From positions 96,001 to 160,000 of the IMG/VR virus record IMGVR_UViG_3300028887_000066: 64,000 bases of DNA. One strand, written 5' to 3'. The DNA comes from a virus. Its lineage: Duplodnaviria; Heunggongvirae; Uroviricota; Caudoviricetes. Positions 59,049-64,000 of this stretch are shown here, in pieces (within the stretch, counting starts at the first letter, position 1; each line of letters begins with the position of its first letter). A program made the position numbers and the translations under genes. Under the pieces are notes generated by a model. The model did no database searches. It was not told the origin of the DNA and worked only from the letters and a program-made list of their open reading frames with translations.

Positions 59049-59668
59049 TACCTTCGACATATCCATATTATCTTTAATATAACAATAAATCTTGAACCGC
59101 CAAACTTTTTCCAATGAATTTTGCAAAAAATGAAGAGAAAATGCAAAATTCTCATCTTTTATAATTGACTGATAATCAATAACTTATGAGGCACTTTTGC
59201 GGAGGAGGGATGCCTTCATGTTCTCATCTCTATTGTATTTAATATAATAAAATCCTTGGAACGGCCAAATAATATGGGAAGAAAATAATATAAAAATACT
59301 GACCCGAAGATTTGGTGGTTTCAAATAAAATGTTATATTAAATACAATAGAAACACCCGCGCAGACACATCCGTGGACAGACTCATGTCATCACGGAATG
59401 TACTGATTTACAGTAAGTTATAACTGCCGTCAAATTCCTCAGAAAATTGAGAAAAAAGTCAGAATTTCCTTGGTTTTCTCAGAAAGTTTATTATATTAAA
59501 ATCAATTTACTTGCGGCGTATCCCGCAGGCAAGGAGGCATCATCCCTGTCGGGTTCACGTGTTGTTTCCGTTAAGGTTTTTTAGGAAAAGAAAAATGCGC
59601 ATTTGTTTGGTCACGTCACAGAAAAGCCTTATCTTTGCAGTAGGAAAAACAAAAGCAAGACAAGCATT

Positions 59669-59896
59669 ATGAAAATAGTATCAAGGTTCAAGGACGATTC
59701 CGATGGCAGATTGCTCGTCATTTACGAGACACCGAGCGGCAACTTGGTGGGAGAAGTGTATGCTGACGGAGTATATAAGAGGGGCAAGTGGAGTAGCCGC
59801 GCAACATTCCGTTGGCAGGATAAGGACGCATCAGAATATAGGGTGCGTGAGTATTTCGGTTTCCTAAAGGATAGCGTAACACAAATCAACAAATAG
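59669..59896 (+). CDS. Early hypothetical protein
   Basis: Preceded by host-type promoter TTTG..TATCTTTGC (about 59606-59638). Confidence 0.7.
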   Translation: MKIVSRFKDDSDGRLLVIYETPSGNLVGEVYADGVYKRGKWSSRATFRWQDKDASEYRVREYFGFLKDSVTQINK

Positions 59897-59905
59897 GCAA
59901 ATACT

Positions 59906-60106
59906 ATGAGGTACATCAATGGTGACAAGGTTAAGGTTGTCATTCCGCAGTTCAAGGATTTGTACGGAGGGCATAACGTATGGGTGATAGACCATATCAA
60001 GGTGCAGAGCAAGGGTTATCCGAGCCTATACATCTGCTACAACGATTCGGACAAGAACAAGATGCTGTTTCATTTCTTGGAAGAGGACGTTGAGAAAATA
60101 GAATAA
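59906..60106 (+). CDS. Early hypothetical protein (SH3-like)
   Basis: GDKVKV..FLEEDVE pattern. Confidence 0.65.
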   Translation: MRYINGDKVKVVIPQFKDLYGGHNVWVIDHIKVQSKGYPSLYICYNDSDKNKMLFHFLEEDVEKIE

Positions 60107-60516
60107 ATCAGTCTTAAATCTGTGTTCATAATTGGCGGCACTGACCCGATGGGTTGGTGCTGTTTTCTTTTTGTATTTCTGTCTGAACGGAGAATCGGCG
60201 GAGGACACGTCGTCCTGAGCTTTACAGTAAGAACGAATTGAATTTAATATAATAAAAGATTCGGAGTGTGCAAATAAATCCCCTATTATTTTTCAATTAT
60301 TTTTGTGATTTTTCTGCCGTAATTATTTGGAGGTTTGAAAATAATTGTTATATTAAATACAATTTAGACACAGGCATGAAGGCGTGCTTCAGCCAGGTGA
60401 TGTCGATGTTCGGGCTTGGTTTTCCGTTAACATTATTTAACTGAAAGTTTTCTGTGAAAAGCTTTGCAGTTTGGGAAAATTGTTGTATCTTTGCACTATA
60501 GAAAAGAAATAAGAGT

Positions 60517-60849
60517 ATGAGTAAGAAAAAGGTTAAGCGGTATGACATTAACAAGTCGGCAGCAGTAGGTAATGAAATCATCTGCCCCGTATGCGGAAGT
60601 CACTTTGTAAAGAAGACCTATCAGCAGGCATTTTGTTCAACAGAGTGCAAGGATCGGTATTGGAATCAGAAACGCAGAGGCAACGGATATTTTAGGAAGT
60701 ACAACGCAGAGCATCCCGAAAGGTTAGAGCGTATAGGCATTGACTTGGAGACTTGTGGTTACGACCCCGATGGTTGTCTTGGAGATCCTGAATGGGAAAG
60801 TCTTGCACAGATAACTTTAGACCCCGATTGTGAAGAAATTGCTTGGTAA
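60517..60849 (+). CDS. Early zinc-finger protein
   Basis: CPVCG..FCSTECK; host-type promoter upstream. Confidence 0.7.
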   Translation: MSKKKVKRYDINKSAAVGNEIICPVCGSHFVKKTYQQAFCSTECKDRYWNQKRRGNGYFRKYNAEHPERLERIGIDLETCGYDPDGCLGDPEWESLAQITLDPDCEEIAW

Positions 60850-60953
60850 TTTTTTCCTTAAATAAGGTTAAAAAGTTTGGTCAGTTCAAGAAAAAGTCTT
60901 ATCTTTGCAGTAGAAATAAGAACAATAGCAAACAACTAAAAGAAACAAGAATT

Positions 60954-61130
60954 ATGAACAGAGAACAGATTTTAGATGCAGTAAAGACTTTGGCGATGTC
61001 GCAGGGTTTCTATGGCAGGCTTTACGAAAGGCTGACCGATGGCACTTGTGAGAGTGATAGTTTCCTCGACCTTATGGAAGAGCAGAATTTTGGTGACACC
61101 GTGGATATGGTGCTTTGGCTTGAAAGTTAA
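60954..61130 (+). CDS. Early hypothetical protein (LAMSQGFYGRL)
   Basis: Host-type promoter about 60876-60908. Confidence 0.7.
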   Translation: MNREQILDAVKTLAMSQGFYGRLYERLTDGTCESDSFLDLMEEQNFGDTVDMVLWLES

Positions 61131-61156
61131 GAATCAAATTTCAAATAGCAGGTAAC

Positions 61157-61348
61157 ATGGAAAAACTGATACAAGAATTTGCCGATGCTTGCAGGGAGAA
61201 GGGTTTGGCAGACAACAAGAAGATAGAGAAGTATATCTTTGATGTCGTGTATGCTGACTATAAAGGAAAGGCAAGCAAGGCTCACATTAAGAACGTGTGC
61301 GATGATATTGCAGAGAGTGTATGCTTGAAGTTAGGCATTGCGTGCTGA
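61157..61348 (+). CDS. Early hypothetical protein
   Basis: ORF track. Confidence 0.65.
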   Translation: MEKLIQEFADACREKGLADNKKIEKYIFDVVYADYKGKASKAHIKNVCDDIAESVCLKLGIAC

Positions 61349-61633
61349 AAAGAAAAATAGTTTTGTGCCATATTGATTATAGTTTTAGGTTTTTAGTTAT
61401 TGGGGTGTTGGTTGCTCGTGATGAGTAGCCAACATTTTTTTATGGTCGGATTATGCCTCGGATGTCTGAAGGCGTTGAGTCACAGTTAGTTACAATTGAT
61501 TTTAATATAATAATAATCTTGGAATAGCCAAATATTTTGGCATAATTTTTTTCTTAAATAATGTTAAGAAATTTGTATAATTCAGATATTATTCGTACCT
61601 TTGCGGTAGAAATAAAAAAACAGAATAAGTAAT

Positions 61634-61963
61634 ATGAAAGAAAAGGAATTTACAGACGAGTTCGAGTATTCAGAAAGCGTTGACTTAGGCAAAGGTAAGC
61701 ATAGGCAGGTCATTATCTACAAAAACAAGGAGGTCGGGTATCTTGTGTCAAAAGAGAAAAATTTGCTTGCACCGATAGAAGAGAGTTACGTTATCCCCGA
61801 TGTCGAGGTTGGTTTGTCAGAGCCTACGGAATCCATGCTTGAAGGGAAAAAGGGTTGGATAGACTTCAAGGTATTCGTTGATGATTATGATGCAGCCTTT
61901 GCGTATGTGAAGCAGAACTTTGAGCAGGTTGCATACCTATTTGAGGTTGGTGACTATGATTGA
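61634..61963 (+). CDS. Early hypothetical protein
   Basis: Host-type promoter TTTG..TACCTTTGC upstream. Confidence 0.7.
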   Translation: MKEKEFTDEFEYSESVDLGKGKHRQVIIYKNKEVGYLVSKEKNLLAPIEESYVIPDVEVGLSEPTESMLEGKKGWIDFKVFVDDYDAAFAYVKQNFEQVAYLFEVGDYD

Positions 61964-62092
61964 TTAGTATTTACAAGGAAAGTTAGAAAAACTAATTATT
62001 TTCATAACTTTTTTCTTAAATAGTGTTAAATAATTTGATAGTATCAATTATTTTTCGTAACTTTGCAGAGTAATAATAAAACAAGTAGTATT

Positions 62093-62377
62093 ATGGCAAA
62101 GCAGATTACAATAGAGCAAGCACTGAATGGCAAAAGAGATTTCTATAGAAAAACTTTTCAGAGCAACGGATATTATCCGATAGACAAGTATGTGTATCAC
62201 GCTGATACTGACGAGTTCGAGCAGTTCGTTCAAAAGACAAGTGGTTGGAAGTCGTGGGGGATTTCCAAAGCCGCAGGTATAAGCAATAAAGATTGGCTTA
62301 GGTACATCTTTGAGCATACAAGTATAATTCTTACATGGGAGGAAATGACAGATAATTATAGTCACGACGCTAATTAA
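62093..62377 (+). CDS. Early hypothetical protein
   Basis: Host-type promoter TTTG..TAACTTTGC upstream. Confidence 0.7.
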   Translation: MAKQITIEQALNGKRDFYRKTFQSNGYYPIDKYVYHADTDEFEQFVQKTSGWKSWGISKAAGISNKDWLRYIFEHTSIILTWEEMTDNYSHDAN

Positions 62378-62843
62378 AAATAACTAAAGAGAATTGCTCT
62401 TGTCGGTAACGGTTGCTTGTGAAAGCAGCCGCTATTTTTTTTTATATGTATGTTTTGTTTTTTTCGTGTGAACCGTGATGAACCTGATGTTCGAGTGGGC
62501 CCTGAGCTTGGACAGTGGTTTCATATTACTTTTAATATAACAAAGTTATTGAAAGGAGCAAGATTTCTGCAAGGAAAATTTGTTAATATGTGTTAAATGG
62601 ATTTTAACATTATTTTCTTTGGTTTTTGTTTGGAGGTATGCAGATTTTTATTATATTAAATTCAATTCGACAAGCCACGTGGCGTGCAGGCATGAGGCAT
62701 CTTCTGTCGATGATGGCTGTATTTCCGTTTAATGTTTTTTAACTGAAAATAAATGCCGCAAAGTTTGCATATATGGAAAAAAAGTCTTACCTTTGCAAAG
62801 GAATTAGGAATAAATAGTATTAACAAATAAACACTTGAAAGTT

Positions 62844-63218
62844 ATGTTAGACATTGCACAGATTATCAAGAAGAACCGAGAGGAAGCCTATGAACTCATT
62901 AAGAGTGTCGGAGGACGTATTGATTTCGTGGAGGGCATTATCAAAGGCAGCACGGACGATTCCGAGGACGATTGGAACGGAGACCCCAACGATGTTAGTC
63001 TGCCTTGGGTCATACTTGCGTTTGACGAGGAATTGGTAGATACGGCTGTATTGGCTGTAAAGTGTGGAGAGAACGAGGGTGACATTGTTTTCCTTGGCTA
63101 TGATGTTGCCGAATGGACTTGTTCGGGTTGGAGCAGTTATGCAGAGTGTTGCAGCAACACCGACAACGACATCTATCTCTTCGTGGATGAATGGCTGAAA
63201 GACCATAACAAGAAATAA
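62844..63218 (+). CDS. Early acidic hypothetical protein
   Basis: Host-type promoter TTTG..TACCTTTGC upstream. Confidence 0.7.
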   Translation: MLDIAQIIKKNREEAYELIKSVGGRIDFVEGIIKGSTDDSEDDWNGDPNDVSLPWVILAFDEELVDTAVLAVKCGENEGDIVFLGYDVAEWTCSGWSSYAECCSNTDNDIYLFVDEWLKDHNKK

Positions 63219-64000
63219 ATCCGATAGAGCCGCCACGCATTAGACATTGGACTTGCGCTTACCCGATGGGTGGGCGCATTTCTTTTTATGCTGTCTGACC
63301 AGCAAGAAAGGAACCCTTAATCCCGTCCAGACAGGAGGTTTCACATTGTATTTAATATAATATTTTATCTTGATTCACCAAATTTTTTTGAAACTTTTTT
63401 CAAAATTTTCTTGGTGGATTGAAGGAATTTATTATATTAAAATCAATTTTTATTTCCCGTATCCCGCGCAGGAAGGAGGCTACTTCACATTCAACATTAT
63501 TATAAGTAATTGATAATGAATGAGTTACTATACAGAAGCCGAGAGATGGAAGGAACATCATCTGTCATGATTGGCTTACGAGTCAATTGATGTCGCATTG
63601 CGTTGATATGTATCTGATGCTTGTGTTTCGCTTGCCGATGCTGATGGGGGAATGGAACTATTGGTTCTGAGACTATGGCACGATTGTCATATTCAGATAA
63701 GAGGGTTATTTTTTAACATAAAAAGATGCGGAAACATTTGGCGATTTCAATGAAATTGTTATATTAAACTCAATTATTATTAACTGTGCGACGCTCGTGT
63801 CCCCGCGCTACTTCACATCCAAATGGTTGTAATTAACTGATTATGAGCAAGTTAGACTGATGACATGATGAGATGGAACACACTGACGCAGACGTGTCTT
63901 CGAGTATGCTGATGGTCAAATGGGTTGGAGTGAATGGAACACAGATGTTCGGTATGACATGTCGATGGACAGCCCCTTCCAGGAAAGATCCAATTGCTTT

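Follow-up and report, generated by a model that had tools for sequence, protein, structure and literature searches.

Variant promoter elements at the early-cassette borders of a phage of rumen Bacteroidales: a candidate second promoter class

Near the right end of the window (the whole 64,000-nucleotide stretch analysed), early genes alternate with promoter-like elements of one repeated design. What are these elements, given that the ORFs next to them have promoters of another kind? The first-pass annotation had placed 12 copies between 59073 and 63768. All were found, with cores at 59067(-), 59232(-), 59333(+), 59491(+), 60237(-), 60348(+), 61495(-), 62525(-), 62651(+), 63345(-), 63432(+) and 63759(+); 10 match TTATATTAAANNCAAT exactly and 2 with one mismatch, a count reached by none of 100 shuffles. 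The extent first given held for these 12 copies but not for the array, which runs beyond the window edge to genome position 191,884: the window copies are the left end of an array of 42 (21 plus, 21 minus) in the 356-kb genome of a phage whose host group is rumen Bacteroidales. Every copy fits a single ungapped 50-column matrix (41 bits), which bears out the invariant spacing to the upstream TTTGG.

Whether the motif was confined to this locus had been left to a genome-wide search. All 42 copies lie within 155,067-191,884, a 37-kb part of the early region, and a matrix scan found none in the rest of the 356-kb genome. Among 185,579 prokaryote genomes scanned there were 97 single matches, scattered over phyla, and no contig with multiple copies; the variant motif is therefore not a host promoter class.

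Each variant copy consists of an A-rich upstream element, TTTGG, a fixed 17-nt spacer, the invariant TTATATTAAA and nnCAAT, followed by about 9 A/T-only bases (+1 to +9) and then about 35 GC-rich bases. The CAAT sits at the expected transcription start, its CA 7 nt after TATATT in the logo. In the logo of 62 non-redundant units, distant relatives included, the core is invariant and TTTGG (-33) is present in approximately 98%. The primary-sigma promoter of Bacteroidota has TTTG at -33 and TAnnTTTG at -7. With it the variant copies share an A-rich region upstream, TTTG(G) at -33 and the class of spacer length, but none of the 42 has the second half of the -7 box, TTTG; TATATT-AAA takes its place. 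The bipartite spacing of sigma-70-type promoters is present in all copies without variation (TTGGyg-16/17-TATATT), and a generic sigma-70 scan reads them as TTGGCG-16-TATATT, several at 9 of 12 matches. Judged by its sequence, each variant copy is built like a strong sigma-70-type promoter.

The early region also contains 39 host-type early promoters (TTTGG-N-TAnnTTTG). Both classes have TTTGG and a TTCAA-type spacer and differ only from the -7 box on, where every variant copy has TATATTAA and the 39 ORF promoters have TAtCTTTG; the downstream GC content is 55-64% for the variant class versus 24-35% for the host type. The earlier proposal that the elements are promoter-like, whereas the ORFs use canonical promoters (confirmed as TTTG-N20-TAnCTTTGCA), was thus supported.

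Every array ORF is on the plus strand, and the variant copies stand at the borders of early cassettes, always directed inward. In general, plus copies stand about 100-125 nt ahead of the host-type promoter of their cassette; for 15 of the 21, the -7 box of a host-type promoter heading an ORF is found 79-126 nt downstream, and none of the 21 is the sole promoter of an ORF; the description of the elements as ORF-less applies to the minus copies and fails for the plus copies. Minus copies are located directly past the terminator of the preceding cassette, back-to-back with the next plus-strand promoter. The minus-then-plus order was found in 13 of 13 intergenic regions holding both orientations, and for 18 of the 21 minus copies, the distance from their TTTGG to a plus-strand promoter (13 variant, 5 host-type) is 18-94 nt. 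In the window, no minus-strand terminator was predicted near the minus copies.

On the left, the array is closed by a plus-strand G-run-rich tract (58860-59060; C-rich on the minus strand); in two relatives, L053 and L060, similar tracts adjoin copies of the motif. Copy 1 (59067-59104, minus; core 59067-59082, one mismatch), the leftmost of the array, is aimed left into this tract. Copy 2 (59232-59269, minus) is back-to-back with copy 3 (59311-59348, plus), and copy 4 (59469-59506, plus) lies 123 nt upstream of the -7 box at 59630 in a host-type promoter (59606-59637, plus; TTTG-N20-TAnnTTTG) heading ORFs 59669-59896 and 59906-60106. This first cassette ends at an intrinsic terminator (60134-60164, plus), into which copy 5 (60237-60274, minus) is aimed, its tail starting right after the T-run. 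Copy 6 (60326-60363, plus) is 122 nt upstream of the next host-type -7 box, in the promoter (60463-60493, plus) of ORF 60517-60849 (zinc-ribbon/HNH-like); a further host-type promoter (60876-60907, plus) heads ORFs 60954-61130 and 61157-61348, and the second cassette is closed by an intrinsic terminator at 61402-61438 (plus).

Copy 7 (61495-61532, minus) has no plus-strand variant partner and is back-to-back with a host-type promoter (61572-61603), with 39 nt between the TTTGG elements. ORFs 61634-61963 and 62093-62377, the latter with its own host-type promoter (62034-62065, plus), are followed by an intrinsic terminator (62410-62431, plus). Copy 8 (62525-62562, minus; one mismatch) and copy 9 (62629-62666, plus; 121 nt upstream of a host-type -7 box) precede the host-type promoter (62764-62795, plus) of ORF 62844-63218 and its intrinsic terminator (63254-63278, plus). 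Copy 10 (63345-63382, minus) is followed by copy 11 (63410-63447, plus), and the next 311 nt contain neither an ORF nor a significant fold. Copy 12 (63737-63774, plus) converges on a minus copy at genome position 159993, just past the window, over 218 nt of non-coding DNA.

Which sigma factor could read such promoters? No phage RNA polymerase was detectable in the phage genome, which has three genes of the sigma-70 family. One of them (genome 161487-162224) lies inside the array under its own host-type promoter and encodes a protein with regions 1.2, 2 and 4. Its closest cellular relatives are RpoD proteins of Bacteroidales (40-43% identity), and the alignment pairs host FKFISYAVWWIRQSI and TRERVRQ with phage FKFISFAVFEIRAAI and TKERVRQ; on sequence grounds, we take the array sigma to be derived from Bacteroidales RpoD. 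Approximately 40 residues of region 3 are missing, and FAVFEIRAAI stands where RpoD has YAVWWIRQSI (WW to FE, Q to A), so that the protein lacks the full set of a group 1 (primary) sigma (regions 1.2, 2, 3 and 4 with Y..WW..Q). Because it has kept the -35-reading helix and lost region 3 and the -10/-7-reading residues, it is probably the reader of the variant promoters. In a relative at 61% identity, the dyad reads AE, and there too motif copies flank the gene. The sigma-motif link rests on two related phage lineages and may therefore reflect shared ancestry instead of cognate recognition. A second early sigma (genome 337795), with WY at the dyad, is an alternative candidate reader.

With about even confidence, we propose that these elements form a second class of bacterial-type promoters, one specific to the phage, that is read by a phage sigma and serves cassette insulation or timed silencing. 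Host core RNA polymerase with the array sigma would read the variant promoters (TTATATTAAAnnCAAT). As the early sigma accumulates, polymerase would enter each early cassette from both ends: sense transcription from the plus copies would run across the host-type promoter, and antisense transcription from the minus copies would pass the terminator, which would not stop polymerase in that direction. The outcome would be insulation of the borders and/or timed silencing of early genes via collision, promoter occlusion and sense-antisense pairing. Insulation or timed silencing is the function that we infer; the net effect on the cassettes is not predictable, since plus copies would also make sense RNA. 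An ordinary middle promoter would be expected to drive some genes by itself, which this class never does.

The same observation would suit a second, unlikely reading, that of polymerase which binds and stays. Here, holoenzyme with the host sigma or the dyad-less phage sigma would bind tightly and rarely fire, acting on the DNA itself as a roadblock or insulator at cassette borders or, after genome replication, as a sink for polymerase or sigma. Loss of the Trp dyad could let the sigma bind without opening DNA; the array sigma has neither the wedge residues that open the -10 element nor region 3. A core that does not vary across 62 units would be more usual for a binding site than for a -10 box, each minus copy has a terminator on one side and the next promoter on the other, and, as a weak point, the tails occur in none of the listed RNA contigs. 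However, the elements are directional beyond the site itself (CAAT, A/T-only +1 to +9, GC-rich +10 to +45, in both orientations), which suggests movement off the site, and the DNA from -20 to +9, being all A/T, would be easy to open even for a poor melter. As a sink, 42 sites per genome would be few before replication.

A more improbable explanation is that the 45-bp element serves mainly as dispersed homology through which co-infecting relatives swap, duplicate or lose cassettes, with promoter activity being secondary. The copies lie in a region of small ORFan genes; in distant relatives, the motif is invariant around unrelated or strongly diverged genes; and tail families common to distant copies in both orientations indicate duplication of whole units. 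T4-type phages offer a precedent in the PeSL (PMC2839356, PMC4122927). In the relative L064, identity drops from 93.5% to about 70% inside one border module, but the breakpoint falls outside the motif, at an ORF end approximately 130 nt ahead of the core. L087, a relative at 95% identity, carries the same 21 copies along 10 kb of collinear sequence. As regards a miniature inverted-repeat or IS-type mobile element, marked by terminal inverted repeats that reach the element ends and by presence/absence polymorphism, the inverted part around a cassette is the 45-bp motif only (the tails flanking one cassette were unrelated by eye), and no presence/absence difference was seen over the 10 kb compared with L087. 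Exchange between inverted flanking copies would flip the cassette, yet all array ORFs are on the plus strand. Shared homology by itself leaves unexplained why the copies strictly face inward, why their distance to host-type promoters is fixed and why their tails are GC-rich. A second promoter class for a phage sigma, the plain reading, is stronger than either the sink or roadblock or the recombination scaffold.

The tails had given rise to another proposal, a small-RNA array in which each unit makes a functional RNA of approximately 50-100 nt from its own promoter; we now regard it as very improbable. A promoter-like head does precede a non-coding GC-rich segment in each unit, and strand-specific words recur among the tails. 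The shared tail blocks (families D5, D9, D11 and D19) and the TTTCCGTT(T)AA block described at first are real. The GC-rich stretch is shorter than the 60-100 nt first described, spanning only about +10 to +45. Averaged over the 42 tails, the fold z is -0.75, and they have no hairpin in common; the two long tails gave -0.7 and +1.25, neither significant. In the window, no terminator was predicted in the tails; plus tails run into the upstream element of the next promoter and minus tails into the reversed terminator. No match or complementarity to the tails was found elsewhere in the phage genome, and no Rfam family matched. Between strains, tails diverge by 5.0% versus 5.4% for other intergenic DNA, and more distant relatives keep the motif with the tails replaced outright; composition is kept and sequence is not. 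Of the marks of a small regulatory RNA gene, the tails show neither conservation in sequence or structure nor a target in the phage genome, and those in the window have no defined 3' end.

The listed contigs from rumen RNA runs cover ORFs starting just after host-type promoters (for example, 163587-163952) and none covers a tail, although contigs can show neither 5' ends, strand nor absence. Possibly in favor of an RNA product, the bin with the 61495(-) unit has very high summed depth in three RNA runs, coming from an unlisted short piece. The tails are also not enriched in restriction sites avoided elsewhere, as had been suggested: they follow the avoidance of the genome, with 0 CCGG, and contain fewer 6-bp palindromes than shuffles. 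They would be spacers or leaders under a constraint on composition, not RNA genes.

Least credible among the graded alternatives are starts of replication or recombination like T4 oriF and oriG, where middle-promoter transcripts stay hybridised and prime DNA synthesis, two middle promoters being used so in T4 (PMC2988021): a promoter with a defined downstream segment of approximately 50 nt, often in divergent pairs that could be bidirectional starts, and a stable GC-rich RNA-DNA hybrid would suit them, but 42 origins in 37 kb are implausible, the strand of the tails that would be RNA is either balanced or rich in C (C 0.34-0.35 versus G 0.22-0.30 at +10 to +19), the wrong skew for persistent hybrids, and the regular placement at cassette borders is unexplained. 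An aid to DNA entry, also suggested at first, is unlikely because half of the copies point each way.

The closest known systems help to place a second promoter class. T4 middle promoters and sigma appropriation by MotA/AsiA have been reviewed (PMC2988021). In both phages the class is phage-made, half host and half phage in design, switched on by an early gene product (putatively so here), and located in the prereplicative region, ahead of genes that have early promoters as well. The two are mirror images: T4 keeps the -10 element and replaces the -35, whereas here the host -33 is kept and the -7/-10 replaced. In T4 the reader is the host sigma, remodelled and joined by an activator, whereas here it is probably a sigma that replaces the host's; moreover, half of the copies are antisense, and no gene depends on the class alone.

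Phage replacement sigmas are exemplified by SPO1 gp28 and T4 gp55. As with these, an early or middle phage sigma would here retarget host core polymerase to highly conserved phage promoters. Unlike them, the array sigma is a recognisable derivative of the RpoD of the host order that has kept regions 1.2, 2 and 4.2 and lost region 3 and the Trp dyad, and its putative promoters occur only in the early region, where they bracket early genes and do not head middle or late genes. For SPO1, the general sigma switch is described in PMC13401047.

The third comparison is with the PeSL (promoter-early stem-loop) of T4-type phages, a terminator stem-loop with a host-type early promoter; the papers mention no inverted or antisense copies (PMC2839356, PMC4122927). 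Both systems have regulatory modules that recur among small early ORFs of a non-essential kind, within a plastic part of a large genome of myovirus type, and the pairs of terminator and host-type promoter in the array fit the PeSL definition. The variant elements themselves are not stem-loop terminators fused to a host-type promoter in gene orientation: their -7 box is not that of the host, they lack a stem-loop, and 21 of 42 are inverted.

Taken at its furthest, and only tentatively, the combination of a dyad-less minimal sigma with 42 self-melting, all-A/T promoters may constitute a dedicated cassette-border system. At each border of an early cassette, and across each early promoter, polymerase would either set off or sit against the direction of traffic; the cassettes would thereby be insulated, and convergent transcription would then silence the entire early programme.

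The record that holds the window is 356,121 bp long and reads well in the standard code. The first-pass annotation had noted 12 copies of a promoter-like motif near the right end of the window, and these proved to be real: 10 match TTATATTAAANNCAAT exactly and 2 have one mismatch, a count reached by none of 100 shuffles. With a matrix built from the copies (41 bits, 50 ungapped columns), we scanned the whole genome and found 42 copies, 21 per strand, all located at genome positions 155,067-191,884. No copies were found outside this region, and the 12 noted copies represent the left end of a 37-kb array. 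The array region is a plus-strand block of small ORFan genes. A scan of cellular genomes with the motif gave only scattered single matches. At the left end of the array, downstream of the first minus copy, there is a tract of about 200 nt (window 58860-59060) with many plus-strand G-runs and G-quadruplex potential; similar tracts adjoin motif copies in the related contigs L053 and L060. The 107-codon proline-rich minus-strand ORF across this tract is probably spurious. In another relative (L085, 97% identical), about 360 extra bases (L085 4320-4680) are present between two early ORFs at the place corresponding to genome 186412.

Employing 62 non-redundant units from this genome and its relatives, we delineated the structure of the motif. 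The logo starts with an A-rich portion (about -56 to -40), followed by TTTGG, a spacer with TTCAA and a T-run, the invariant core TTATATTAAA, two free bases and CAAT. Positions +1 to +9 are almost only A/T, and those from +10 to about +45 (within the GC-rich DNA downstream of CAAT, here called the tail) are 55-64% GC, with C at least as frequent as G and no conserved position; this A/T-then-GC pattern is equal in plus and minus copies. A generic promoter scan called the copies TTGGCG-16-TATATT; taking TATATT as the -10 element would place the CA of CAAT at the distance usual for a start. The ORFs themselves had been reported to use canonical promoters, and the array region indeed contains 39 strict matches to the host-type (Bacteroidota) form TTTG-N19-21-TAnnTTTG, which is nearly missing from 0-140 kb and is sparse and on the minus strand in 195-320 kb. 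The host-type consensus (n = 39) is aTTTGGcca..tcaaaaaAaAgtCtTAtCTTTGCA. The upstream half is common to the two promoter classes, which diverge only from the -7 box. Downstream of host-type promoters, the DNA is A-rich (24-35% GC).

The variant copies are arranged in a defined manner relative to the early-gene cassettes. Fifteen of the 21 plus copies are positioned 79-126 nt upstream of the -7 box of an ORF-heading host-type promoter, and the remaining 6 are ahead of another plus copy, a more distant host-type promoter or non-coding DNA; none of the 21 is the sole promoter of an ORF. Ahead of the 21 minus copies, there is neither an ORF nor a host-type promoter. As described in the first-pass annotation, minus copies point into the previous terminator: for 13 of 21, a distance of 51-64 nt separates CAAT from the T-run of the terminator that ends the preceding cassette. 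All 13 intergenic regions holding both orientations show the minus-then-plus order. A plus-strand promoter partner was found for 18 of the minus copies (TTTGG-to-TTTGG 18-94 nt, median about 40); 13 of these partners are variant copies, giving divergent pairs like those seen earlier, and 5 are host-type promoters. Because inward-pointing copies are present at both borders, cassettes would be entered from both ends. Terminators predicted in the window are on the plus strand, after each cassette; no minus-strand terminator was predicted near minus copies, and none in plus tails. Apparently, there is nothing obvious to stop antisense transcription from minus copies.

The genome encodes three proteins of the sigma-70 family. 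In a profile search of the genome for a phage RNA polymerase, PF00562 and PF00623 gave no match; the T7-type profile PF00940 gave none either, but its control was silent too, which makes that negative uninformative. One sigma gene (genome 161487-162224, 245 aa) is located inside the array, between one plus and one minus variant copy, and is served by a host-type promoter of its own. This array sigma contains regions 1.2, 2 and 4 and is without about 40 residues of region 3. Among cellular proteins, it is closest to RpoD of Bacteroidales (285-291 residues, 40-43% identity). In the alignment of region 2.3/2.4, host RpoD shows FKFISYAVWWIRQSI, whereas the array sigma shows FKFISFAVFEIRAAI; in region 4.2, TRERVRQ of host RpoD corresponds to TKERVRQ. 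In sigma-70, the Tyr, Trp dyad and Gln that are replaced in the array sigma open and read the -10 element, and the retained helix is responsible for reading the -35 element. The changes in the array sigma mirror the two promoter classes, with the same upstream element and another downstream box.

In a homologue that is 61% identical, AE occupies the dyad, and motif copies likewise flank the gene. Throughout the family of phage sigma factors to which the array sigma belongs (alignment A1: P0001, P0024-P0036), region 3 is missing and the Trp dyad is replaced, by FE, AE, FD, FY, AY or PY. The family forms two subgroups and, from its sequences, derives from Bacteroidales RpoD. The more distant subgroup (FY/AY/PY) occurs in the phage locus L162, where all promoters within 10 kb are of the host type. 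Of the other sigma genes in the genome, both on the minus strand, the second early one (genome 337795, 286 aa) is headed by a host-type promoter and encodes a protein with WY at the dyad and divergence in region 4.2, which seems less likely to be the reader of the motif than the array sigma; the third (genome 351165, 238 aa) keeps WW and has a TATTTAT-like box ahead. In contigs of aquatic phages (L029-L044), a sigma about 40% identical heads a different promoter system, which is not the array motif but has TTATATTTAAG-type boxes ahead of every early ORF instead. In six of these contigs (L036, L039, L040, L042-L044), almost all small early ORFs have a promoter about 20 nt ahead of them; the -7-type box does not vary (TTATATTTAAG or TTATATTTATG), and two upstream elements, of the GATTAGGAT and GGTTGACACG types, alternate.

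The array had alternatively been proposed to encode small RNAs. Folding of the 42 tails gave a mean z of -0.75 and no common hairpin; two long non-coding tails at the right end of the window showed z of -0.7 and +1.25, and a Rfam scan of window 58000-64000 (E up to 1) produced chance-level matches only. With fold z-scores about zero, we rejected the idea of structured RNAs. Relative to seven relatives with 89-98% identity, the mismatch rate was 3.0% for the motif, 3.9% for host-type promoters, 5.0% for tails (+10 to +47) and 5.4% for other intergenic DNA, compared with 2.1%, 1.5% and 6.4% at first, second and third codon positions. In more distant relatives (L053, L054, L064, L070, L122 and L060), the core is unchanged, and the tails are other sequences of the same composition. 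Tails keep their GC content, not their sequence. We rejected the small-RNA array on these grounds: no fold signal, no Rfam match, a mismatch rate close to that of intergenic DNA, and replacement of the tails in distant relatives. Tails matched only other tails in the phage genome, and antisense guides to phage genes were therefore rejected. A DNA search of 401 Bacteroidales genomes with the tails considered just two candidates per genome; the listed matches were all in the sigma gene, so the search carries no information on host targets. A few tail families are common to copies of both orientations, indicating that whole units were duplicated.

Enrichment of the tails in otherwise avoided restriction sites was refuted. 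The genome contains no CCGG (about 557 expected), 40 CTAG (about 402 expected) and none of a dozen 6-bp palindromes, including CTGCAG, GGTACC, GACGTC, GAGCTC, CTCGAG, CGTACG and ACGCGT; tails share this avoidance, with no CCGG, and GGATCC and GGGCCC recur within one tail family only. With 16 six-base palindromes against 25 expected, tails are not natural polylinkers. From window 63445-64000 on to genome 159992, there are two partly homologous non-coding stretches of 311 and 218 nt, each after a plus copy, the latter being covered convergently by a minus copy. Neither shows an ORF or a fold signal, and they may be decayed cassettes.

At least 14 runs from bovine or other guts, spread over many studies, contain the phage DNA, and parts of the sequence occur in six RNA runs. 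We analyzed assembled contigs of four RNA runs over 20 kb, from which strand, 5' ends and absence are not readable. In three rumen RNA runs, contigs span early ORFs and have their starts shortly downstream of host-type promoters (for example, 163587-163952 and 164401-164658), which fits host-type promoters as the main mRNA source in those samples. None of the listed RNA pieces covers a tail or reaches back to a variant copy, although absence is not readable from such contigs. X15, with its nearly complete and even coverage, may contain DNA; the pieces listed for X17 and X18 are identical. In the bin at window 61169-61835 (L027 2669-3335), summed contig depth was 6661, 3604 and 527 in three RNA runs, compared to 0-12 elsewhere. 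This depth comes from one short unlisted piece, either a cross-match to some foreign RNA that is abundant or a local RNA present in very large amounts. A contig of the RNA run X20 (genome 167954-168132) lies in intergenic DNA between the ORF at 167599-167925 and the plus copy at 168215, a stretch without a minus copy.

The regulatory array described here is real, conserved and non-random. Characterized by its promoter anatomy, early-region confinement, inward orientation, back-to-back pairing, tails conserved in composition only and an altered sigma, it is best read as a variant form of phage-specific promoter control. The array sigma would direct host core polymerase to the variant copies; polymerase from plus copies would cross the host-type promoter and ORFs, and that from minus copies would run back through the terminator in the antisense direction. 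Such transcription could insulate borders, with read-through polymerase removed head-on ahead of the next promoter, or bring about timed silencing of the early cassettes, and the two effects may be combined. A sigma with a weak ability to open DNA would be well served by the all-A/T stretch (-20 to +9), and the GC block might serve to confine the bubble or to stabilize the first elongation complex.

Functionally, the closest parallel is the T4 middle promoter, which combines a host half with a phage half, is turned on by early products and occurs upstream of genes that have early promoters as well (PMC2988021). In the variant copies, however, the host and phage halves have changed places, and a replacement sigma is the probable reader. 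The pairs of terminator and host-type promoter in the array region correspond to PeSL cassettes (PMC2839356, PMC4122927), but the variant elements do not. One mosaic junction, in the relative L064, is within a border module and not at the motif, which may still take part in shuffling. Searching the literature, we found no description of the motif, the sigma subgroup or the inward-facing, half-antisense layout. To our knowledge, very little is known about transcription timing in Bacteroidota phages.

The locus provides a clean natural experiment, in which two promoter classes have the same upstream half and only the -7 box is different, and the adjoining host-derived sigma differs from that of the host exactly at residues reading the -7 box. 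Because the two classes and the altered sigma are found side by side, a test of -7 recognition by the Bacteroidota polymerase needs only two proteins and two templates. The locus may also supply an orthogonal sigma/promoter pair with which to engineer gut Bacteroidales. The inward-facing, half-antisense layout raises the broader question of why large phages set promoters against early genes at cassette borders.
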